From Calditrichia bacterium (GTDB taxonomy: Bacteria; Calditrichota; Calditrichia; RBG-13-44-9; J075): DNA of 64,000 nt. This document shows positions 8,637 through 45,545 of the stretch, piece after piece. A program made the position numbers and the translations under genes. The stretch spans positions 76,998 to 140,997 of the forward strand of contig JACKAP010000006.1 of assembly GCA_020635015.1 (NCBI GenBank), given 5' to 3'. Numbering within the stretch: the first letter of the stretch is position 1; each line of letters starts with the position of its first letter. Below the pieces are notes generated by a model that saw nothing but the letters and a program-made list of their open reading frames with translations, was not told where the DNA came from and ran no database searches.

Positions 8637-9560
8637 ATGGCTTCGATTTTCGATAAGATCAAACAAGGATTCAGCAGAACCCGAGAGCAGGTCTTTGACC
8701 GCATCAATCACGCTATCAATGCCAAGAAAAAGATCGATGATGAGCTGCTGGAAGAAATCGAGGAAATCCTGATCTCCGGTGATGTCGGGGTGGAGACCAC
8801 CCTGGAGATCATCGAAAACGTCAAGCAGCGGGTGCGGAAAGAGAAGTATGAAGAATCGCACGAACTCTATCGGATCCTGCGCGAGGAAGTAGCGGGCATC
8901 TTTCCGGAGAAGCAATTCCGGGAAGATGGGCTGAGCAACCGGCCTTATGTGATCCTGGTGATCGGGGTGAACGGCACCGGCAAGACCACCACCATCGGCA
9001 AGCTGGCCAACCGTTTTCGCCAGCAGGGCAAGAAAGTGCTGCTGGCGGCGGGCGATACCTTCCGGGCGGCGGCCATCGAGCAGTTGGAGATCTGGGCGCA
9101 GCGGGTGAATGTCGACCTTGTCAAGCACCAATTTGGCGCCGATCCCGGGGCAGTGGCCTTCGACGCCATCCAGGCGGGGCGCTCGCGCCAGGCGGATGTG
9201 GTGATTATCGATACCGCCGGGCGGCTGCATACCAAAGTGAACTTGATGGAAGAGCTGAAAAAGGTGCAGCGGGTGATCCAGAAAGTGGACCCGGGCGCCC
9301 CCCATCTCAATCTGCTGGTTCTCGACGGCACCACCGGCCAGAATGCCCTCAACCAGGCCCGCCAGTTTATCGATGCCGTGGGGGTGGACGGCATCGTGCT
9401 GACTAAGCTCGACGGCACCGCCAAAGGCGGGGCGGTGATCGGGATCGCCCACCAGTTGAAACTGCCGGTAGAATACATCGGGGTGGGGGAGGGGATCGAT
9501 GATCTCCAGCCGTTTGATCCTCAACTCTATGCGGAAAGCCTTTTCGCAAATGCGGAATGA
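8637..9560 (+). CDS. ftsY: Signal recognition particle receptor FtsY
   Basis: '[17 protein letters not shown]', 'DTAGRLH' and '[11 protein letters not shown]' SRP-GTPase motifs. Confidence 0.95.
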
Positions 9561-9593
9561 ACCGCATCCAGCATCCAGCATCCAGCACCGAGC
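9561..9593. repeat. (GCATCCA)n heptamer tract
   Basis: accgcatccagcatccagcatccagcaccgagc. Confidence 0.8.
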
Positions 9594-36526: not shown

Positions 36527-37903
36527 TCAGCCCTTCGCGCTTCGCCCTTTGCCATCTTTTTCCAGCCAGGGCGGCAGCGCTTCCAACTGCTGCACGTATT
36601 CGGTGTTTTCCGCCTGGCGGATGACGGCAATGCTTTTATCCTCACCGATCATCACCACATTGGGACGGAGGTGGATGAACTGCATCCATTGGGTGTTGTT
36701 GTAGGCCCCGACCGGAGAGATCACCACCTGGTCGCCTTTCTCCAGGTAGGGCATCTGGATGGTGTTGCAGATCTCATCGATCTGCATGCACAGCGGTCCG
36801 TAGATGTGATGAGCCTCCTGATTCAACTGGGCTTTATTCTCCGCCGGCAGGATGGTATGGTCGTACCAAAAGGAGGTGAACAGCAGATTGACCCCGGCGT
36901 CCAACACCAGCATGCGCATGCCGCTGTTCATGCGCTTGGTGGCGACCACCTGGGCGATCAGGAAGGCCGACTCATCCACCAGCCCCCGCCCGGTCTCCAG
37001 GAAGAGGGTGGGCAACTGCGCTGCCGGGAAGGCGTTGAGCAGCTCCGCGGTGATCGCCTCGGCATACTGGTCGAAGGAGGGGATGGTCTGGTAGGCCGCC
37101 GGGTAGATCGACGCCTTGAGCTTGTTGTGCGAGGCGAAGCCGCCTCCGATATCGATATAGCGGATCTTGATGCTCTCTGCCTGCTGGATCTGCTGAACAA
37201 AGCCGATCAGCTTGCGCACCTGTTCGCGGTAAACCTCGGCGTTGAGCACAAAGGTGCCGATATGGGAATGGATCCCCACCAGGCGCAGCCACTTGCTGGC
37301 GGCGATCCTCCGTGCCGCCTCGAAGGCCTGCCCGCTCTCCATGTTGAGGCCAAATCGATCCCACGACTGCAAAGTAGAGAGGTTCATATTGACCCGCATG
37401 CCGATCTCGACTTCCCGGCCGAGGTCCTCGGCAATCTGTTCGATCTCGTAAATTTCATCGAAGCTGTCGATGTTGATCATCGCTCCATCCTGAACCGCGA
37501 TTTGCAGTCCGCGAGGCGACTTGTACGGTCCGTTGAAGATGATCCGGTTGCCGGGATTGCCCATCTTGCGGGCCAGTTCATATTCCCATTCCGAGACCAC
37601 CTCCGCCCAGGCGCCGAGCTGGTGATAGCTCCGGCATACCGCCTGCAGATAGTTGGTCTTGTAGCTCCAGGCGAAATGTACTTTGGGATATCGTTTAGAG
37701 AAAGCCCGGTAGGCATTCTGGAAGATCTCCTTCAGCCGCGGGTAGGAATAGACAAAGAGCGGGGAGCCGTAGGCGGCGGTCAACTCGCTGACCGGGATGC
37801 CTTCGATATTGTCCTGAAAGCCGCTGGTCTGCGGTGTGCCGAATTTGCTGGTAATGCCCATTTGCCGCCGCGATATCGCCGGTTTTTGATAGGTCTTTTT
37901 CAT
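36527..37903 (-). CDS. Fold-type III PLP-dependent decarboxylase (Orn/DAP/Arg decarboxylase family 2; LysA/BtrK-like)
   Basis: PLP-Lys context 'FAWSYKTNY', 'IDIGGGFAS' and C-terminal 'GPLCMQIDEI'. Its start overlaps the ATP-grasp stop by 4 nt. Confidence 0.8.
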   Translation of the reverse strand: MKKTYQKPAISRRQMGITSKFGTPQTSGFQDNIEGIPVSELTAAYGSPLFVYSYPRLKEIFQNAYRAFSKRYPKVHFAWSYKTNYLQAVCRSYHQLGAWAEVVSEWEYELARKMGNPGNRIIFNGPYKSPRGLQIAVQDGAMINIDSFDEIYEIEQIAEDLGREVEIGMRVNMNLSTLQSWDRFGLNMESGQAFEAARRIAASKWLRLVGIHSHIGTFVLNAEVYREQVRKLIGFVQQIQQAESIKIRYIDIGGGFASHNKLKASIYPAAYQTIPSFDQYAEAITAELLNAFPAAQLPTLFLETGRGLVDESAFLIAQVVATKRMNSGMRMLVLDAGVNLLFTSFWYDHTILPAENKAQLNQEAHHIYGPLCMQIDEICNTIQMPYLEKGDQVVISPVGAYNNTQWMQFIHLRPNVVMIGEDKSIAVIRQAENTEYVQQLEALPPWLEKDGKGRSAKG

Positions 37904-38994
37904 GATGTCGGTCCTTCATCGGTTGAATGTTGCACAGGATTCGTCTCCGGATAATGGATCTCACCCCGGGAGAGCAGGCTGTCCAGCTGGCTGATTTCGC
38001 CAATCAGATCGATGGTGTAATGGGTGAAGAGTTTGCCCACCTGGTAATCGTTGACCGGTTCCAATTTCCGCCCCCGGGCCAGATCAACGTAATGGGCGGG
38101 CAGGTTGATCTCTGCCGCCACTCCGAGGTAGATCCAGGCGGGAAAGCGCGGGTTGATCTCCAGGATATAGAGTTTCTGGTCGCGCCGGGCCAGCAGGGTC
38201 TCCATCTCCAGCGCGCCCCGCCAGCGAGTGGCGCTAATGAAGCGGCGGGTGAGGTCGAGTAGCTGCTCGTTGCGGATACTCACCCCCGCCCAGCCCTTGC
38301 CCTTGTCGGTGAGCAGGATCTTCTTCATGCACAGGGCGGACACAATGCCGCCGTCGCCCCCGCCCAGCGCCGCTGCATTGAATTCCTCGCCCTGGATATA
38401 TTCCTGCACCAGCAGCGGGTAGCCCCACTTGTTGGCCAGCAGGCGGGCGTAAGAGAGCGCCTGAGGCTGGTCGTGGCAAATGTAAGCGTCGTAATAGATC
38501 CCTTTGACCAGCAGCGGGAAGCCGACCTCCCGCAGCGCTGCCTCCAGATCGGCCAGATGGTGCACCGTCACAGTGCGTGGTACCGCAAAATCAAATTTAC
38601 GGCCCAGTTCCGCCAGGTTGGCTTTGGAGCGGGCCTCGATCTGCGCAGTGGTGGGGATGAACATCCGGGTCCCGCTCTCCCGCAATTCAGCTTCCAGCCC
38701 GGCAAAGTGGGCGATCTCCGAATCCAGGGTGGGGATGATGATGTCGATGGGCGTTCTCTGCCGGATCTCATCCAGGCGCTGCTGCAGCGCCTCCCGCCCT
38801 TCCCGGGGGTAGGGCAGCAGATAGCCGGCACGGAACAGCTCGCGGTCGAACAGCCCGGGATCGATGGCGTCATAGCCGAGGGCGATCAGGCGATAATCCT
38901 GCCCGCCCTGGGCCATCAGACTGCGCGCCACCGCCACACCCGGACCGGGACTCTCCACGGCGTTGACCCCGGTAATGGCTATGGTCAGACTCAT
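37900..38994 (-). CDS. ATP-grasp family carboxylate-amine/peptide ligase
   Basis: Pre-ATP-grasp N-domain and 'LYILEINPRFPAW' ATP-grasp core. Its start overlaps the PqqD-like stop by 4 nt. Confidence 0.8.
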   Translation of the reverse strand: MSLTIAITGVNAVESPGPGVAVARSLMAQGGQDYRLIALGYDAIDPGLFDRELFRAGYLLPYPREGREALQQRLDEIRQRTPIDIIIPTLDSEIAHFAGLEAELRESGTRMFIPTTAQIEARSKANLAELGRKFDFAVPRTVTVHHLADLEAALREVGFPLLVKGIYYDAYICHDQPQALSYARLLANKWGYPLLVQEYIQGEEFNAAALGGGDGGIVSALCMKKILLTDKGKGWAGVSIRNEQLLDLTRRFISATRWRGALEMETLLARRDQKLYILEINPRFPAWIYLGVAAEINLPAHYVDLARGRKLEPVNDYQVGKLFTHYTIDLIGEISQLDSLLSRGEIHYPETNPVQHSTDEGPTS

Positions 38995-39269
38995 ATGCTG
39001 TTCTCCTGTGTGTCAAAACTGACCAGGCCGAGGTTGATCAGCATTGGGATGAATTCGCGGATATCCTTGTCGAGTACCCGTTCGTCCACTTCGTAAACTT
39101 CCAGCAGGCGGGTTTTGATCGCCTCGGTATCGGTGATGCCTTCTTTGAGGCACTGGATGATGTCTCGGGCAACCTCATTGGTGCTGAGGATTTCCCCGGT
39201 GCCGGGATCGAATACGAACCCGGTATCGCTGATGATGAATTGCTGTAATCTTTCCACATTGTAGCGCAT
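38991..39269 (-). CDS. PqqD-family protein (RiPP-recognition-element-like peptide chaperone)
   Basis: 92 aa; 'FVFDPGTGEILSTNEVARDIIQCLKEGITDTEAI...VDERVLDKDIREFIPMLINLGLV' matches the PqqD pattern. Confidence 0.7.
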   Translation of the reverse strand: MRYNVERLQQFIISDTGFVFDPGTGEILSTNEVARDIIQCLKEGITDTEAIKTRLLEVYEVDERVLDKDIREFIPMLINLGLVSFDTQENSI

Positions 39270-39287
39270 GGCGAATTCTCCTGAAGA

Positions 39288-39719
39288 TTAGGGGGATACC
39301 AGGTAAGCCCAGATATAGGCGGTCATGCCGTCGAGCTTATAGCCGAGTTTATTGCATACCGCGTCGTCTTCGGCACAGTCTTTTTTTTCCAGCTTGCGCA
39401 GCCAAACCGCGGCCTCGAAGGTGCCGTTGAGGTATTCCGGATCGACCACGATCTCCTTCACCGTCACCCCCTGTTTGATCGAAAAAGAGAGATGCTTGCC
39501 CTCTTCCAGGGTATTGGTCACATTGGGCGGGTAAAGCGAGACCCCCAGCCACATGTCCTTGCCGCTGACGTGGGCAGTGAGGGTTAGTTTGAGGGTGTTG
39601 CCGCCGTTTTTGGTGATCTCGTAGGAGAACCCGATCTGGTCGGTCTGGGCGGCCGCCCCATTTCCAAAGGCGCTGATTAACGCCAGCAGGATGATAAAAA
39701 TTAATGTGTTACGCTTCAT
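39288..39719 (-). CDS. Small secreted hypothetical protein (signal peptide; C-terminal Cys pair)
   Basis: MKRNTLIFIILLALISAFGNGAAAQ signal and '...KDCAEDDAVC...'. No recognisable family. Confidence 0.6.
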   Translation of the reverse strand: MKRNTLIFIILLALISAFGNGAAAQTDQIGFSYEITKNGGNTLKLTLTAHVSGKDMWLGVSLYPPNVTNTLEEGKHLSFSIKQGVTVKEIVVDPEYLNGTFEAAVWLRKLEKKDCAEDDAVCNKLGYKLDGMTAYIWAYLVSP

Positions 39720-39731
39720 AGTGATGACTCC

Positions 39732-40604
39732 TTAGAATTTATAGAACAAACCAAATGTATAGTACACAGCACTGAACTGAAATCCCTGGTCGTCATAGCG
39801 CTCATATTGGACATCCGCATAAGGCTTGAGGTGCTTGCCGAGCTGGTAGTAGGCGGTGAGCCCCAGGTTGGTGGTCAGCATCACGTCGGTGGTGTAGAGC
39901 ACCAGCGTCGAGGGGTTATAAGAAAGTACCTGTTCCCCGAAAATTCCGTAAGCAGTAAGGGTGAGTTTGCGGGGCACGGGGTACCAGGTTAGCTCCGGAT
40001 GCACGCTCCAGCCCCATTTGATATTCTGCACCGGCTGTTCATAAAACGAAAAATGCCCGGAAGCCTGCGCCCAGACATAATAGTTGAACAGGGCCATGCC
40101 CCAGGTGGCGGAGACTTCGGCTTTATCGGCCAGGTCGTTAGGAAAATAGTGCAGATTAAGATCCGCATAATAGCGCCCCGCCGGAGAAAACCAGGAAAGG
40201 GAGAGGTAGCCGGGAAAGGTCTGATCGACCGCCGGAAAAGGCGCCCACAGCGCGCTGCCCTCCAGGGCCAGGGTAAAGCTGCCGCGATGGCGAGTATAGA
40301 AGGTGCGGGCCAGGCTGACCCGCAGGTGGTCGCTGCGGGCCGGCTCGCCGTCGGTTTTGTCGACCGTGATGTCGGTATGGCGCCAGCCCAAGGCCAGCCA
40401 CCAGGTCTTGGCTCGATTGTTATAATAGATGTCGCCCCTTCCGGAGCGAAATACGTCGACCAGGCTGTTTTCGTAGATTCCGTAGACGCCTTTCGCCGCG
40501 ACCGTGAGCGAGGACTGGGCAGATGCCTTGCCGCTCAGGAACAGCGCCAGGCAGATCAGTTGTAAAACCGTAAATTGCAGTAAGCGGGTCGATAAGCGTT
40601 TCAA
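39732..40604 (-). CDS. Putative outer-membrane beta-barrel protein
   Basis: Signal peptide, alternating amphipathic strands rich in Y/W/G, and a C-terminal aromatic residue (...FGLFYKF). Confidence 0.6.
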   Translation of the reverse strand: MKRLSTRLLQFTVLQLICLALFLSGKASAQSSLTVAAKGVYGIYENSLVDVFRSGRGDIYYNNRAKTWWLALGWRHTDITVDKTDGEPARSDHLRVSLARTFYTRHRGSFTLALEGSALWAPFPAVDQTFPGYLSLSWFSPAGRYYADLNLHYFPNDLADKAEVSATWGMALFNYYVWAQASGHFSFYEQPVQNIKWGWSVHPELTWYPVPRKLTLTAYGIFGEQVLSYNPSTLVLYTTDVMLTTNLGLTAYYQLGKHLKPYADVQYERYDDQGFQFSAVYYTFGLFYKF

Positions 40605-40611
40605 ACCGTAT

Positions 40612-42765
40612 TCACTCCCCGGGTGTCTGTTCGTAATACTCTATTTTATCTAACTTTAATTCGACGCCATTCTCCTGGAGATAATTGAATCCTTCCCCTT
40701 TGCGGAACACCAGTTGGCGGGTGCCAGCCTTGCGCTTGAACGTAAAATGCCATCTGATAAATCCGCCTCGGATCTGCTGGGCCTGCTTGAGCAGAATGGT
40801 TTCGTCGGGCAGTTTTTCCAGGGAATTGTCGATCTCCAGGAAGCAGCGCAGGCCGAAAATGGTAAACAGGTCCAGGAAGTGCACCAGGTAACGGGGCAGG
40901 GTGTAATCCAGGGAGGTCTGGCTGGTCCAATGAAGTTTGCCCGGCGCTTCCGGAAACACCACATCGGTGAGGGTCTGGGCCAGCAGAAACAGGGCGCTGT
41001 TGCGCTTTCCCTGATACTTTTTCAGCGAGAGCACTCCTTCAGACAGGTCGAAATAGAGCCGGTCGCCGTCCTGGTTTTCCAGGCAGAGATTGTTGTAAAA
41101 ATCATTGTGCAGATGCCAGGATTCCTCAGAGCTCAACTTGCCGCTGTTCAGGATCAACTGCCATTTTTTGTAAATTTCATCGAAGAAATATTTGCTGTAG
41201 TCGGCATCATAGCGCAGGTTCTCCACCCGGTCATCTTTGTTGAGGATGCCCTTGGGAAGCAGGCGGTCGGCGGCGTTATCCTGTTTGATCAGCAGATTGG
41301 AAAATTCAAAATAAAGTGCCGGGGCGCCGATGTAATCCTGAGCCTGAAACTGCAGGTGGATATGCGGGTAGGGAGAACGGCCGGAATTGCCGCAGTGCCC
41401 GATTTTATCACCTTTACTGACGGTATCCCCTGCTTTGACGCTGATCGAATCCTTCTGCAGGTGAGCGATGCAGCTGTAGAAATAGGGGGCATGCTCGATG
41501 ATCACGCAGTTGCCCCAGTTGTCGCGGGGATTGGCCTGCCCGGGGCGGTTGTCATAGATGTCATTTTTGACCCGAACGACCGTGCCGTCGGCCGGGGCGA
41601 GCACCAGGGCGTTGTAGCAATAGTAATCGCTCAGCTTCTCCCCGCTGCCGCTGTAAATGCTGCCGCCGGTGTCGCGGATCATGAAGTCGATCCCATAAGC
41701 CCATTCGTCTTTATGGGTATATTCGCCTTTGAATGCCTGGCTCACCACCCAGTCGCTGTAAAAGGGCAGGGAGATCGCCACCCCGTAGCGCCGCCACATC
41801 TTCAGGTTTTCCCGGTAGCTGCTCAGGTTCTCCTCAGGTGATAGCGGGTGGGAACTCAATTCCAGCCCCAGCGAGGGATGGAGGCGCATCTTTAAGGCAA
41901 ATACCACCAGTAGCACCGAGAGGTTGAAAGACAGCGCAAGAGAAGAGAGATAAAACGGCATGGCGATCTCCAGCGCGATCAGGTTCATGTAAACGATAAA
42001 GATGCCGAAGATCGCCAGCAGGAGGCTGGATAGATTCGGGATCAGGAACACCCCGCCCAGCGCCAGGGCGGTGAGCATATAGTTGAAGCCAAGATATTGG
42101 CTGTGAATGAACGCTTCGCTCACCCCGAAAAATTCGTGGATGTAATACCCGCCCAGCCAGCCGATCCCGATCAGCAACAGCGAGAGGCGGGAATAAATCA
42201 GCAGCCCGGCGGCGATCAGGATGCCTGAGATCGGGTTGATGGTGAAAAAGATCGCCCCGAGGTTCTTGAAAAACAGGTTGAGGCTAAGGGGCAAGGCATG
42301 CAGGGAGACGTCAAACACCTGCCAGCGCACCTCCGAAGGGGTCAGGTAGCCGCTGCCAAAGCTGGCGATGATGGCGGTGTAGATGATCAGATTGAAGGGG
42401 AGGCTCATGTAGGGCAGCCCGTAGGCGCTCAAGAAGGTTTTGATCCACATGGTGAAGACGGTCATCAGGATCACCGCAATGATGACCAGGATGACCAGGT
42501 GGAGGGAGACATCGTAATAAAGGCTCAGGCCTAACGCCACCAGAATACCGTTGAAGCCCCATAAGCCTTGCCGTATCTCCTGGCGGCTGAATCCCAGCAG
42601 GTAGGCGACCAGGTTGGCAATCAGCGCCCCTCCCAGGCCGAAGATGCCGTGGGAGGGAATGACCAGGGTTGCCAGCAGGATAATCAATCCCAATGCCTGA
42701 TGTTGTGAAAAGAATATGAGCGAATAGCTTTTTAAGGTACTCTCTGTCCAGAATTTCGCATTCAT
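40612..42765 (-). CDS. Polytopic membrane protein with N-terminal urea-transporter (UT)-like domain fused to M23 metallopeptidase and C-terminal domain of unknown function
   Basis: N-terminal 'ALGLIILLATLV...GLWGFNGILVALG' resembles the UT-family LSGLLILVGL...GLYGYN. M23 core 'HAPYFYSCIAHL...GHCGNSGRSPYPHIHLQF'. This is the first gene of a six-gene operon. Confidence 0.7.
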   Translation of the reverse strand: MNAKFWTESTLKSYSLIFFSQHQALGLIILLATLVIPSHGIFGLGGALIANLVAYLLGFSRQEIRQGLWGFNGILVALGLSLYYDVSLHLVILVIIAVILMTVFTMWIKTFLSAYGLPYMSLPFNLIIYTAIIASFGSGYLTPSEVRWQVFDVSLHALPLSLNLFFKNLGAIFFTINPISGILIAAGLLIYSRLSLLLIGIGWLGGYYIHEFFGVSEAFIHSQYLGFNYMLTALALGGVFLIPNLSSLLLAIFGIFIVYMNLIALEIAMPFYLSSLALSFNLSVLLVVFALKMRLHPSLGLELSSHPLSPEENLSSYRENLKMWRRYGVAISLPFYSDWVVSQAFKGEYTHKDEWAYGIDFMIRDTGGSIYSGSGEKLSDYYCYNALVLAPADGTVVRVKNDIYDNRPGQANPRDNWGNCVIIEHAPYFYSCIAHLQKDSISVKAGDTVSKGDKIGHCGNSGRSPYPHIHLQFQAQDYIGAPALYFEFSNLLIKQDNAADRLLPKGILNKDDRVENLRYDADYSKYFFDEIYKKWQLILNSGKLSSEESWHLHNDFYNNLCLENQDGDRLYFDLSEGVLSLKKYQGKRNSALFLLAQTLTDVVFPEAPGKLHWTSQTSLDYTLPRYLVHFLDLFTIFGLRCFLEIDNSLEKLPDETILLKQAQQIRGGFIRWHFTFKRKAGTRQLVFRKGEGFNYLQENGVELKLDKIEYYEQTPGE

Positions 42766-42964
42766 CTCCGGCTCTCAGCTTGTGCGATCGAATAGTGAAT
42801 TGCAAACTGGCATTAATCCAACTTTATTATGATGCTGGATACTGGATGCTGGATACAAGATTGGGTCGAGCATCCAGCGTCTTCGGATGTATAGATCGTT
42901 ACCATTCGCATTGTAATATACCGGATTTAATCGCGGTACTCCATCATTGATACATTTTGTTCGC

Positions 42965-43369
42965 GGTTGATGGGTTAATGGGGAAAAGGATAAAGGATAA
43001 AGGATAAAGGATAAAGGATAAAGGTTGAAGATACTGGATACTGGATACTGGATAAAATAAAAATGCTTGTTCAGGTGTGAAAATCGGGTTCATTTAAGCA
43101 TCCAGCATCCAGCATCCAGCATCCAGCATCCAGCATCCAGCATCCAGCATCCAGCATCCAGCATCCAGCATCCAACATCCAACATCCAGCATCCAACATA
43201 TACTCATCAGACAAAGCCATCCGCAAAAACTTGCAAATTTCCTATTGACCTGACCCGATCCCTTCAACATATTTCCGCCGCAATGAAAAATCAACCCATC
43301 AACCCATCAACCCATCAACCCATCAACCCATCAACCGATCAACCCATTAACCCATCAACCCATCAACCC
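42965..43369. repeat. IR-L: composite heptamer block (GGATAAA)5-(ATACTGG)3-unique core-(GCATCCA)12-(ACATCCA)-(CCATCAA)9 running up to the S9 peptidase start codon
   Basis: Seen directly. Its first 200 bp or so are the reverse complement of 45296-45545. Confidence 0.9.
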
Positions 43370-45295
43370 ATGAAAACATTACCCTATGGCACCTGGCCAT
43401 CACCGATTACCGCCGATCTCATCGCTGCCGCCGGGCGGCGGCTGGGCGATATCGCCGTCGATGGAGATTCGGTTTACTGGATCGAAAGTCGCCCGGAGCA
43501 GGAGGGGCGCAATACCATCATGATGTGGAACCCCGGCGGGGAGTTTCGGGAAGTTACCCCGCCGCCTTTTAATGTGCGCTCCCGGGCCCATGAATACGGC
43601 GGCGGCGCTATGGCGGTGTATGGCGGCCGGGTGTTCTTTGTGAACGATGCAGATCGCCAGATCTATCACATTCCTCCCGGCGGATCCCCGCAGGCGCTGA
43701 CCAGCGAATCCGATACCGCCTATGCCGATATGATCCTCGATCCGGCGCGCCAGCGGCTGATCCTGGTGCAGGAGCATTATTTTGATGACAGCCGCCCGCC
43801 CCGCGACATGCTGGCCGTGCTTTCCCTGCGCGGCCGCCCGGGATATTGTGAGCCGCTGGTGAGCGGGAACGATTTCTATGCCAGTCCCGCCCTGAGCCGC
43901 GACGGCCGGCAGCTTTGCTGGCTGAGCTGGGACCATCCGGCAATGCCCTGGAACGGTACTGAATTATGGGTGGCGGAGGTAGGGGATGACGGTCAACTGC
44001 GCCGCCGGCGCCGGATTGCCGGAGGCGCGCAGGAGTCGGTGTTCCAGCCGCAATGGGGTACAGACGGCACCCTGTATTTTGCTTCCGACCGCAGGGAGGG
44101 CTGGTGGAACCTCCATGCCTGGGATGGGCACACCATCCGGCCGGTGCTGGAGATGGCTGCGGAGTTCGCCTTGCCCCAGTGGGTTTTCGGAATGTCGACC
44201 TATTGTATTTTGAATGAGCGTTGTATCGCCGCTGCGTACACCCGGGAGGGGCGCTGGGAGATGGGGCTGATCGATCCGCAGCGCGGTGATCTGGAGGCCC
44301 TGGCGCTGCCCTTTAGCTATATTACCCAGGTTCGCGGCGCCGGGGAGCGGATCGCTTTTGTCGGCGCTGCGCCGGATGCAGCGGAGGCGGTTTATACCCT
44401 GGAACTGCCGTCGCAGCACCTGCAGATGTTGCGGAAATCCAGCGATCTGGAGGTGGATGCCGGCTATATTTCCACCCCGCAGGCAGTGAGTTTTGAAAGT
44501 GATGGCGAGGAGGTGCACGGCTTTTTCTATCCTCCCAGCAATCGCGATTTCAGCGCTCCGGAGGACGAAAAACCTCCGCTGATCGTATTCATTCACGGCG
44601 GTCCCACGGCGGCGGCGAACAGCGGATTGGATCTTCGCAAACAATTTTGGACCAGCCGCGGCTTTGCGGTGCTCGACGTCAACTACCGGGGCAGCACCGG
44701 CTATGGGCGGGCGTACCGGGAAAGCCTCAACGGCCGTTGGGGGGTGGCCGATGTGCAGGATTGCGTCAACGGCGCCCGGCGTCTGGCGGCGCAGCAGCAG
44801 GCGGATCCGGAAAGGCTGCTGATCCGCGGCGGCAGCGCCGGGGGATTCACCGCCCTGGCGGCGCTGACTTTTCACGATTGTTTCCGGGCCGGGGCGAGCT
44901 ATTATGGCATCAGCGATCTGGAAGCGCTGGAGCAGGAGACCCACAAGTTTGAATCGCGCTACAATCATCAATTGATCGCCCCCTATCCCGCCGGTAAGCC
45001 AGTCTACCGCGAACGCTCGCCGCTGCACCATGCCGGGGATCTGAACCGCCCGGTGATCTTCCTGCAGGGCCTGGAGGATCGGGTGGTGCCCCCCGGTCAG
45101 GCGGAAAGAATGGCCCACGCCCTGCGTAAACGCGGCGTGCCGGTGGCTTATCTTACCTTTGAGGGCGAAGGGCACGGCTTCCGCAAGCCGGAAACCATCC
45201 GCCGCGCCCTGGAAGCGGAGTTGTTCTTTTATGGAAGGGTGCTGGGATTCGAGCCCGGGGAGAAGCTTGATCCGGTGCAGATAGATAATTTGTGA
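43370..45295 (+). CDS. S9 family serine peptidase (acylaminoacyl-peptidase / dipeptidyl-aminopeptidase-like beta-propeller + alpha/beta-hydrolase)
   Basis: Nucleophile elbow 'GGSAGG' and a C-terminal 'HGF' His. The true start is ATG 43370 (MKTLPYGTWPSP); the upstream 100 codons of the listed ORF translate heptamer repeats (SIQHPAS..., QPINPST...). Confidence 0.85.
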   Translation: MKTLPYGTWPSPITADLIAAAGRRLGDIAVDGDSVYWIESRPEQEGRNTIMMWNPGGEFREVTPPPFNVRSRAHEYGGGAMAVYGGRVFFVNDADRQIYHIPPGGSPQALTSESDTAYADMILDPARQRLILVQEHYFDDSRPPRDMLAVLSLRGRPGYCEPLVSGNDFYASPALSRDGRQLCWLSWDHPAMPWNGTELWVAEVGDDGQLRRRRRIAGGAQESVFQPQWGTDGTLYFASDRREGWWNLHAWDGHTIRPVLEMAAEFALPQWVFGMSTYCILNERCIAAAYTREGRWEMGLIDPQRGDLEALALPFSYITQVRGAGERIAFVGAAPDAAEAVYTLELPSQHLQMLRKSSDLEVDAGYISTPQAVSFESDGEEVHGFFYPPSNRDFSAPEDEKPPLIVFIHGGPTAAANSGLDLRKQFWTSRGFAVLDVNYRGSTGYGRAYRESLNGRWGVADVQDCVNGARRLAAQQQADPERLLIRGGSAGGFTALAALTFHDCFRAGASYYGISDLEALEQETHKFESRYNHQLIAPYPAGKPVYRERSPLHHAGDLNRPVIFLQGLEDRVVPPGQAERMAHALRKRGVPVAYLTFEGEGHGFRKPETIRRALEAELFFYGRVLGFEPGEKLDPVQIDNL

Positions 45296-45545
45296 GTGGA
45301 TGGGTGGATGGGTTGATGAGTGGATGGGTGGATGGGTTAATGGGTTGAGATGCTGGATGCTGGATGCTGGATGCTGGATGCTGGATGCTGAAATGAACCC
45401 GATTTTCGCACCCGAACAAGCATTTTTATTTTACCCAGTATCCAGCACCTTCAACCTTTATCCTTTATCCTTTATCCTTTACCCTTTATCCTTTATCCTT
45501 TATCCTTTTCCCCATTCACCCATCAACAAGCAATCGCAAAACCAC
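45296..45545. repeat. IR-R: inverted copy of the IR-L composite heptamer block
   Basis: Its reverse complement reads ttgatgggtgaatggggaaaaggataaagg...ggttgaaggtgctggatactgggtaaaataaaaatgcttgttcgggtgcgaaaatcgggttcatttcagcatccagcatccagc..., over 90% identical to 42969-43160. Confidence 0.9.

Follow-up and report, generated by a model that had tools for sequence, protein, structure and literature searches.

A conserved PqqD, ATP-grasp, PLP-decarboxylase and UT-M23 gene cluster in a Calditrichia bacterium: a probable system for making and exporting an amine-bearing compound

Introduction

FigC, SbnH, AcsE, MccE, BtrK and diaminopimelate decarboxylase (DAPDC) are decarboxylases dependent on pyridoxal 5'-phosphate (PLP). 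They form one clade, whose substrates are for the most part amino acids in conjugated form (PMC7857480). The same work names the residues by which FigC is adapted to an N-acylated side chain; R290 and Y331 of FigC hydrogen-bond the amide oxygen, and citrate is bound by H357 and R387 (PMC7857480). In urea transporters (UT) both termini are intracellular (PMC11589576). The present description concerns an operon that joins a decarboxylase of this clade to a membrane protein of the UT fold. The operon is located on the minus strand of a 64,000-nt stretch of DNA, the window, which belongs to a Calditrichia bacterium (GenBank assembly GCA_020635015.1, contig JACKAP010000006.1, positions 76,998 to 140,997 of the forward strand). 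All coordinates are those of the window, except where another locus is named. The operon core encodes a PqqD-like protein, an ATP-grasp ligase, a PLP decarboxylase and a fusion of a UT fold with an M23 peptidase domain. It probably makes and exports an amine-bearing compound. A preliminary description of the operon, made from the letters of the window alone, is taken up where the results bear on it.

Composition of the operon

Six consecutive open reading frames (ORFs) of the minus strand occupy positions 36527-42765 in the ORF listing of the window:

36527-37903, minus strand: PLP decarboxylase, 458 aa (ORF and Pfam)
37900-38994, minus strand: ATP-grasp ligase, 364 aa (ORF and Pfam)
38991-39269, minus strand: PqqD-family protein of the RiPP recognition element (RRE) type, 92 aa (ORF and Pfam)
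39288-39719, minus strand: secreted protein with a Cys pair, 143 aa (ORF, signal peptide)
39732-40604, minus strand: outer-membrane beta-barrel protein, 290 aa, TTG start (ORF, signal peptide)
40612-42765, minus strand: UT-M23 inner-membrane fusion, 717 aa (ORF and Pfam)
41326-41769, minus strand: M23 domain of the fusion, predicted cytoplasmic (conservation, topology prediction)

The six genes form a genuine operon. Overlaps of 4 nt (ATGA) are read in the sequence at 37900-37903 and 38991-38994, where the coding strand shows ...cATGAaa... and ...atATGAgt... and the stop of the upstream gene overlaps the next start. The PqqD gene and the ligase gene are translationally coupled in this way. The remaining junctions are gaps of 18, 12 and 7 nt. 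The tight six-gene coupling put forward in the preliminary description, with its coordinates, two ATGA overlaps and gaps of 7-18 nt, is seen in the sequence as given there. Its domain calls (PqqD, ATP-grasp, PLP decarboxylase, UT and M23) agree with the Pfam search; the length of the fusion, given there as 715 aa, is corrected to 717 aa. The 143-aa and 290-aa proteins match no Pfam family. No NCBIfam model is above its cutoff for any of the six proteins, and none of them matches a PADLOC defence model.

Conservation of the core

The four core genes are kept together across at least five phyla and hundreds of species. Non-redundant loci from other genomes, 83 in number, were analysed with the six window proteins as tblastn queries and through all-against-all clustering of ORFs; presence counts take in only those loci whose contig extends far enough. 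The PqqD gene is directly upstream of the ligase gene in 82 of 82 loci. The decarboxylase gene is directly downstream of it in 69 of 71, and in two further loci it follows after an inserted gene. The UT-M23 gene comes next after the decarboxylase gene in 58 of 60 loci. An outer-membrane barrel protein is encoded in 52 of 57 loci; for a secreted periplasmic tetratricopeptide repeat (TPR) protein of about 207 aa the count is 51 of 57. The usual core order is PqqD, ATP-grasp ligase, fold-III PLP decarboxylase, UT-M23. The window departs from it in gene order only: UT-M23 and the barrel stand first, and the barrel is without the TPR part. Gene content, order and co-conservation are direct observations, and chance adjacency is excluded by the co-conservation counts. 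The neighbourhood check proposed for the triad of PqqD, ligase and decarboxylase thus found it co-conserved across phyla.

Core loci occur in Bacteroidota, Ignavibacteriota, Nitrospirota, Nitrospinota and Myxococcota. The ligase is 100% identical to a protein of a Calditrichaeota metagenome-assembled genome, which places the window in Calditrichota. More than 1,800 relatives of it can be detected at 40-50% identity across phyla, and it is encoded in at least 578 species genomes in a scan with one genome per species. Cultured carriers are Hymenobacter gummosus, Mucilaginibacter psychrotolerans and Pendulispora rubella. Three look-ups that started from UT-M23 homologues all adjoin ATP-grasp and decarboxylase genes, with PqqD visible on two of the contigs; among these are the P0137 cluster, which bears the label Nitrospinae, and the P0179 cluster, labelled 'Chlorobi'.

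Full-text searches found no literature description of the combination of PqqD, ATP-grasp ligase, decarboxylase and UT-M23. With no curated family above cutoff, the triad matches no described pathway that was found, as had been suggested from the sequence. It is a widespread gene system, undescribed as far as found, in which known enzyme families occur in a new arrangement. The 'ligate then decarboxylate' chemistry has precedents; for the fixed UT-M23 fusion and for an RRE without a precursor gene none was found.

Proposed pathway

The preferred reading, with a probability of roughly 0.45, is an envelope-spanning biosynthesis-and-export system with a 'ligate, then decarboxylate' chemistry on a tethered amino acid. 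The ATP-grasp enzyme, acting in the cytoplasm with the PqqD-like protein as its adaptor, would form an ATP-driven amide (isopeptide-type) bond between the side chain of an amino acid and an acceptor. Two versions can be written. In the first, the delta- or epsilon-amine of ornithine (Orn), lysine or 2,4-diaminobutyrate (Dab) would be joined to a carboxylate; in the second, the side-chain carboxyl of glutamate or aspartate would be joined to an amine. The FslC-like enzyme would strip the alpha-carboxylate and leave a terminal primary amine, as an amide of the putrescine/cadaverine type or of the gamma-aminobutyrate (GABA)/beta-alanine type. The M23 domain and the beta-sheet domain behind it would lie at the cytoplasmic mouth of the UT-type pore and may trim the product or release it from the acceptor. 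The resulting small amide-bearing molecule may cross the inner membrane via the UT pore. Passage of the outer membrane would fall to the dedicated barrel with a periplasmic partner; in most lineages the partner would be the TPR protein, in that of the window the 143-aa protein. The order of the reactions, the identity of acceptor and product, the cytoplasmic position of M23 and the direction of transport are inferred.

PLP decarboxylase

The decarboxylase matches Orn_Arg_deC_N (122 bits) and Orn_DAP_Arg_deC (49 bits) in Pfam. Compared with the PDB, it is nearest to FigC/FslC (7kh2, 3.1e-55), followed by DAPDC (1.4e-44) and BtrK (7ru7, 1.6e-25; 2j66, 4.5e-25). The NCBIfam models for FslC (NF041039, 225.7 bits, cutoff 500) and lysA (TIGR01048, 223.6 bits, cutoff 297.9) both remain below cutoff. 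Residues of FigC were mapped via the HMMER alignment, in which PDB chain numbering equals that of the paper +19, and via an alignment of 69 family members.

Catalytic residues and the pattern of specificity residues are read directly from these alignments. The PLP lysine, the GR phosphate loop and the catalytic Cys are kept in the window enzyme and in the 69 family members. Met (M355) adjoins the catalytic Cys, where the free-amine binders ornithine decarboxylase (ODC) and DAPDC carry Asp or Glu. Y383, T327 and Y331 of FigC are conserved in the window enzyme and in the family members, and R290 is conserved as well. The citrate residues of FigC are altered: H357 is replaced by Ile and R387 by Gln. 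The C-loop GPLCM(N/Q)ID is specific to the family (GPLCMQID in the window, GPLCMNID in the family), and the distal-amino loop CE(S/T)GD of LysA is absent. Because the citrate residues are changed and the DAPDC loop is replaced, the enzyme is neither LysA nor FslC. Its pocket appears suited to an aliphatic side chain that ends in an amide and is joined to something less anionic than citrate. The enzyme is predicted to work like FslC yet to fall outside the FslC family. The ligase-then-decarboxylase logic, which the preliminary description had drawn from butirosin, is strengthened by the kinship with FslC/FigC and by the kept aliphatic-chain and amide residues.

The same kinship may be read as the sign of a metallophore or other polyamine conjugate. 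The ATP-grasp enzyme would then replace the synthetase of the NRPS-independent siderophore (NIS) type and couple Orn, Lys or Dab with a small carboxylic acid; FslC-like decarboxylation would follow as in rhizoferrin and staphyloferrin B, and the envelope proteins would export the compound. The decarboxylase is nearest to FslC and keeps the aliphatic-chain and amide residues, which is consistent with such a product. Several Bacteroidales loci also adjoin genes for an AraC regulator with an N-terminal CxxC domain, a CzcB-like adaptor and a DUF2202 protein. These adjoining metal-related genes, however, are not conserved across lineages, and the citrate-binding residues are absent. The loci hold no conserved TonB-dependent receptor or uptake genes, and known NIS pathways make no use of a PqqD partner. 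A metallophore is on balance unlikely, and the tethered-amino-acid pathway with export is preferred.

Homologues of the decarboxylase share a conserved N-terminal extension of about 25 aa (window 37826-37903, residues 1-26) with the consensus x-Y-E-R-P-x-I-K-K-L-...-K-F-G. It precedes the canonical decarboxylase fold. The extension resembles a peptide tail and may be a candidate ligand of the PqqD-like protein.

ATP-grasp ligase and PqqD-like protein

The ligase matches ATPgrasp_Ter with 31 bits in Pfam. Its profile finds carbamoyl phosphate synthetase (CPS, 1.7e-19) and 2pn1 (6e-13) in the PDB. The AlphaFold2 model has a mean confidence (pLDDT) of 86.9. In Foldseek its closest neighbour is 2pn1, an uncharacterised protein (TM 0.80); PylC, BL00235, BacD and RizA are also found. 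Amide-forming enzymes are thus among the fold neighbours, namely PylC and the L-amino-acid ligases BL00235, BacD and RizA. The Mg/ATP motif E279-x-N281-x-R283 and K164 are invariant. From profile and model, the ligase belongs to the structural group of CPS-like enzymes, PylC and L-amino-acid ligases.

The 92-aa protein matches PqqD (PF05402) with 45.2 bits against a cutoff of 23.4. Its best NCBIfam match is the lasso PqqD chaperone NF033530 (25.6 bits, cutoff 70); the HPr-rel-A PqqD model TIGR04353 (25.0 bits against 35) and the GeoRSP PqqD model are likewise below cutoff. A PP-binding match, expected of an acyl carrier protein (ACP), is absent in Pfam and NCBIfam. The protein is thus PqqD-like and not an ACP, as the preliminary description had it. 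The conserved motif is N-x-A-x-S-E/D-x-G-F-x-F-N-P-x-T-G-E-S-F; the domain is a typical RRE type with a conserved extra N-terminal strand. A role as a LysW-like carrier with a conserved acidic C-terminus was considered and rejected: the C-terminus varies, and such a role is unlikely because it is not conserved.

An RRE-type protein calls to mind a classical pathway to a peptide that is ribosomally synthesised and post-translationally modified (RiPP). PqqD would present a ribosomal precursor, the ATP-grasp enzyme would ligate or cross-link it, the decarboxylase would modify it, M23 would cut the leader and the product would be exported; in a variant from the preliminary description the 143-aa protein is the precursor. 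The 45-bit PqqD/RRE domain, with the lasso B1 chaperone as best NCBIfam match, argues for this. The parts also parallel those of lasso systems (RRE, protease, ATP-dependent amide-forming enzyme, exporter), and the M23 domain and the enzymes are predicted to share one side of the membrane. The search for a precursor, however, gave nothing conserved. ATG-started ORFs of 12-75 aa around the 83 clusters were clustered by blastp-short, and the only recurring small ORFs are antisense shadows of the PqqD and decarboxylase genes. Three-frame translation of the spacers between the AraC and PqqD genes meets stops in every frame. A 49-aa ORF in locus L087, tried as a precursor, is of low complexity and unique. 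The 143-aa protein is found in four loci only and is Sec-secreted, and passage of a folded peptide is not open to a UT pore. A classical RiPP pathway, now with a precursor gene at some other place in the genome, is improbable; the ligation and decarboxylation of a small tethered amino acid remains the preferred reading.

UT-M23 fusion

The fusion matches UT (PF03253) with 177.9 bits over profile positions 2-291 of 292, and Peptidase_M23 with 59 bits. It consists of a UT fold at about residues 8-321, an M23 domain at about 333-480 and a family-specific all-beta C-terminal domain at about 490-717. Among the homologues listed, 120 of 120 carry UT and M23 and are about 700-745 aa in length. The C-terminal domain is modelled as a curved all-beta sheet (pLDDT about 90) with generic matches to lipid-carrier-type sheets, and it was not found outside the UT-M23 family.

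Topology was taken from homology to UT-B and from loop charge; a crude hydropathy count of helices was uninformative. Residues 9-321 align with the whole of bovine UT-B, the cytoplasmic PEEN loop included. No hydrophobic segment occurs beyond residue 291 in the window fusion. Over 60 homologues, Lys and Arg number 10.1 in the 66 residues of predicted cytoplasmic loops and 2.8 in the 78 residues of periplasmic ones. The M23 and C-terminal domains therefore most probably face the cytoplasm, beside the three enzymes, given the homology to UT-B, the intracellular termini of urea transporters, the absence of a later helix and the positive-inside count.

The M23 fold has its zinc-binding and catalytic residues. 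T-H351, D360, H435 and P-H467-x-H469 are conserved in alignments of 60 and 26 homologues; the canonical histidine of HxxxD is replaced by an invariant His nine residues ahead of the Asp. The peptidoglycan-peptidase equivalogs of NCBIfam are all far below cutoff. The urea-transporter equivalog TIGR03441 gives 109.4 bits against a cutoff of 274.6. The urea ladder Q(Pa)-T(5a)-T(5b)-Q(Pb) is represented in the window by L16, S121, A277 and A171; in the family, 39 of 60 members have Q at the first position, 51 have S at the second and 46 have S at the third, while the fourth is A or S. A nearby Gln, found in 57 of 60 fusion homologues, is Thr175 in the window copy. Judged by these residues, the lineage of the window may have changed or lost the function of the UT pore.

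An alternative is envelope remodelling, in which a periplasmic M23 domain cuts or binds peptidoglycan, UT transports urea or a solute akin to it, and a peptidoglycan precursor is modified by the enzymes, for instance through attachment of a diamine to a stem-peptide carboxylate. Peptidoglycan modified with polyamines is known in other bacteria. M23 and LolA-like folds are typically periplasmic, and the next genes encode periplasmic and outer-membrane proteins, all of which would suit this alternative. The predicted topology nevertheless places M23 in the cytoplasm; the score of the urea-transporter equivalog (109 against 274.6 bits), the altered urea ladder and the low scores of the peptidoglycan-peptidase equivalogs depart from what it expects, and the cluster has no linked Mur or Fem genes. 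Envelope remodelling is accordingly very unlikely. Action on peptidoglycan, which the preliminary description had proposed, is disfavoured by the complete UT fold, the absence of a further helix and the Lys and Arg count.

Outer-membrane barrel, TPR protein and 143-aa protein

The 290-aa barrel protein, which carries a signal peptide, terminates in ...FYKF. By hhalign (95%, E 2.9e-8) the 290-aa family is homologous to the barrel that forms the C-terminal part of an outer-membrane protein of about 466 aa. This TPR-plus-barrel protein occurs in clusters of Bacteroidota and Myxococcota, and the window protein is its barrel-only counterpart. In these relatives the architecture gives weak TPR_Slam matches only. 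Homology of the barrel to PgaA, BcsC or AlgE was not detected.

The 143-aa protein has a signal peptide and the Cys pair DCAEDDAVC, which is kept by three homologues in the fetched loci. No Pfam or NCBIfam model matches it. It occurs in 4 of 84 loci, namely the window, L003, L005 and L006 (two Ignavibacteria and one Nitrospirota besides the window). A word-indexed search of 5.8 billion proteins gave 8 matches at E <= 0.001, one of them partial. Among the barrel-only clusters, the TPR protein of about 207 aa is missing where the 143-aa protein is present; in L016 and L049 the reverse holds. The 143-aa protein would be a lineage-specific periplasmic accessory. It is read as an accessory and not as the substrate, the role earlier suggested for it, because it is present in four loci only and the TPR protein is found elsewhere; it also carries a secretory signal peptide.

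The TPR-plus-barrel architecture of the outer-membrane partner in most lineages invites comparison with synthase-dependent exopolymer systems and with a linear polyamide as product. Repeated side-chain ligation of Glu or Asp and decarboxylation on a primer held by PqqD would give unbranched poly-GABA or poly-beta-alanine. The cytoplasmic M23 domain would cut the chain, as its relatives favour Gly-Gly bonds free of side chains; the chain would thread through a repurposed amide-selective slot of the UT fold and exit by the TPR/barrel porin. No precursor gene is required, the peptidase is constantly fused to an amide channel, and BtrJ/BtrK provides a precedent for the chemistry (PMC7857480). This reading is wholly inferential, however. 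The barrel is without detected homology to PgaA, BcsC or AlgE, the decarboxylase is nearer to FslC than to BtrK, and transit of a polymer via a UT pore is without precedent. A polyamide is the most doubtful of the products considered; export of a small amide-bearing compound is preferred to it.

Points that weigh against the proposed pathway

Several observations weigh against an envelope-spanning system that makes and exports a small amine. The UT pore is narrow, and three of four ladder positions are non-polar in the window, with a hydroxyl only at S121. The UT domain could be an anchor or a trimerisation scaffold and no conduit. The usual periplasmic location of M23 and LolA-like folds, mentioned above for envelope remodelling, counts here as well, and so does the failure to find a conserved small ORF for the RRE-type protein. 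In L052 and L074 the contig runs for more than 8 kb beyond the decarboxylase gene and no UT-M23 gene follows; the trio in these loci may cooperate with different proteins, or a gene for the fusion may lie somewhere else in the genome. On the short contigs L044 and L060, too, no UT-M23 gene is seen after the trio of PqqD, ligase and decarboxylase. At the Nitrospinota locus L086 neither a barrel gene nor a TPR gene follows.

Regulators, accessory genes and surroundings

Upstream regulators vary by lineage: a LytS-type kinase with a LytTR regulator, AraC with a CxxC domain, or ECF (extracytoplasmic function) sigma factors. Inserted accessory genes vary between loci (sigma factor, DUF302, IF-2B-family, aminotransferase, DUF2202) and give no consistent clue. 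The IF-2B-family gene lies between the decarboxylase and UT-M23 genes in L031 (12511-13458), L051 (12420-13337), L079 (12452-13360) and L087 (6171-7001); the family is that of methylthioribose-1-phosphate and ribose-1,5-bisphosphate isomerases. At the same insertion site L070 has genes for a membrane protein, a class I/II aminotransferase-like protein and a secreted protein.

A conserved non-coding motif is present in the AraC-PqqD spacer of Bacteroidales loci, e.g. L007 (9588-9747), and in the equivalent spacers of L011, L018, L024, L034, L041, L042 and L071. One frame reads 'KILYI..KI'; stops occur within and around it in most loci. The motif is probably a promoter or operator. A Flavo-1 RNA (RF01705) is located in L008, a Chitinophagales metagenome-assembled genome, at 9516-9590 on the plus strand, about 160 nt upstream of the PqqD gene (49.8 bits, gathering score 42). 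It is the sole match at gathering score in 14 loci searched with Rfam; the other 13 have none.

The flanks of the window operon encode GFO/IDH/MocA, BNR, Big_7, S9 and M16 proteins. A search of the flanks found no radical-SAM, lanthionine, lasso or HprK-like enzyme, in accordance with the preliminary description. Rfam gives no riboswitch or leader RNA on the operon (E <= 1). A promoter and terminator scan of the operon found sites no more numerous than in shuffled sequence. One further feature precedes the operon:

42766-43066, no strand: intergenic region upstream of the operon, presumed promoter site (heptamer tandem repeats)

Three successive blocks of tandem repeats stand just upstream of the operon: AAAGGAT x10, AGCATCC x15 and ATCAACCC x10. 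Their reverse complements return in mirrored order beyond the S9-peptidase gene. The two sets of blocks (window 42831-43371 and 45293-45529) make up a composite inverted repeat (181 nt, 86%) on either side of that gene, and the heptamers of 42766-43066 belong to it. The 742-aa ORF listed from 43067 runs through the repeats; its true start probably lies about 100 codons downstream, at the Met of 'MKTLPYGTWPSP'.

Significance

A system found in hundreds of species and at least five phyla, for which no name, HMM or paper was found, probably marks missing biology. Its product could be a compound that environmental Bacteroidota, Myxococcota, Ignavibacteriota, Nitrospirota and Calditrichota secrete or carry on their surface. 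If the proposed pathway is true, the 'ligate then decarboxylate' logic of rhizoferrin, staphyloferrin B, butirosin and microcin C extends to an ATP-grasp enzyme with an RRE-type partner. To the authors' knowledge there is no earlier case of a UT fold constantly fused to a peptidase, apparently on the cytoplasmic side. The fixed fusion suggests that UT pores can carry cargo other than urea. The presence of a PqqD/RRE protein in a cluster without a nearby precursor gene bears on the range of RRE recognition. The cultured carriers make the system directly testable.

Comparison with known systems

Lasso systems (B1/B2/C/D) have the same list of roles: RRE, leader protease, ATP-dependent amide-bond enzyme and exporter. 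The present cluster differs from them in that it has no transglutaminase-type B2, Asn-synthetase-type cyclase, ABC exporter or precursor gene. It differs from HPr-rel-A/GAK-type systems in that its PqqD is below the TIGR04353 cutoff and neither the operon nor its flanks encode an HprK-related kinase.

Urea transporters (SLC14, dvUT, Yut) share the complete UT fold with the fusion. The family of the fusion differs from them in being always joined to M23 and the C-terminal domain and in its altered ladder, which is degraded in the window copy. A TPR-plus-barrel architecture, known from synthase-dependent exopolymer secretion, occurs in the relatives with weak TPR_Slam matches only and with no detected homology to PgaA, BcsC or AlgE; the window copy is barrel-only. 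In glutathionylspermidine synthetase/amidase an amide synthetase of the ATP-grasp type is paired with a cytoplasmic hydrolase domain from a cell-wall-hydrolase family. That hydrolase is CHAP and not M23, and the enzyme, one soluble polypeptide, includes neither a decarboxylase nor membrane parts.

MccD/MccE of microcin C includes a decarboxylase of the same clade, whose substrate is an amino-carboxy group that a peptide-derived molecule already bears (PMC7857480). The SAM-dependent transferase, the MccB-type enzyme and the precursor gene of microcin C have no counterpart here; the IF-2B-family gene in L031, L051, L079 and L087 is the only hint, and a very weak one, of a link to S-adenosylmethionine (SAM) and methylthioadenosine (MTA).

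BtrI/BtrJ/BtrK of butirosin combines an ATP-grasp enzyme and a decarboxylase of the alanine racemase fold with an amino acid on a partner of about 90 aa, and repeated ligation, decarboxylation and ligation is possible. The small protein of the present cluster, in contrast, is PqqD/RRE-like and not a phosphopantetheinylated ACP. The match to BtrK (about 1e-25) is weaker than that to FslC or DAPDC, the envelope genes are without counterpart, and the ligase is likened to BtrJ by the general ATP-grasp fold alone.

The FslA/FslC (FigA/FigC) and SbnE/F/H systems of rhizoferrin and staphyloferrin B differ in having an NIS synthetase in place of the ATP-grasp enzyme, no PqqD partner, and siderophore uptake genes, which the present loci do not have. 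They likewise use a side-chain amide ligase followed by a PLP decarboxylase of the alanine racemase fold, and the window decarboxylase shares with FslC/FigC the Met by the catalytic Cys, Y383, T327 and Y331.

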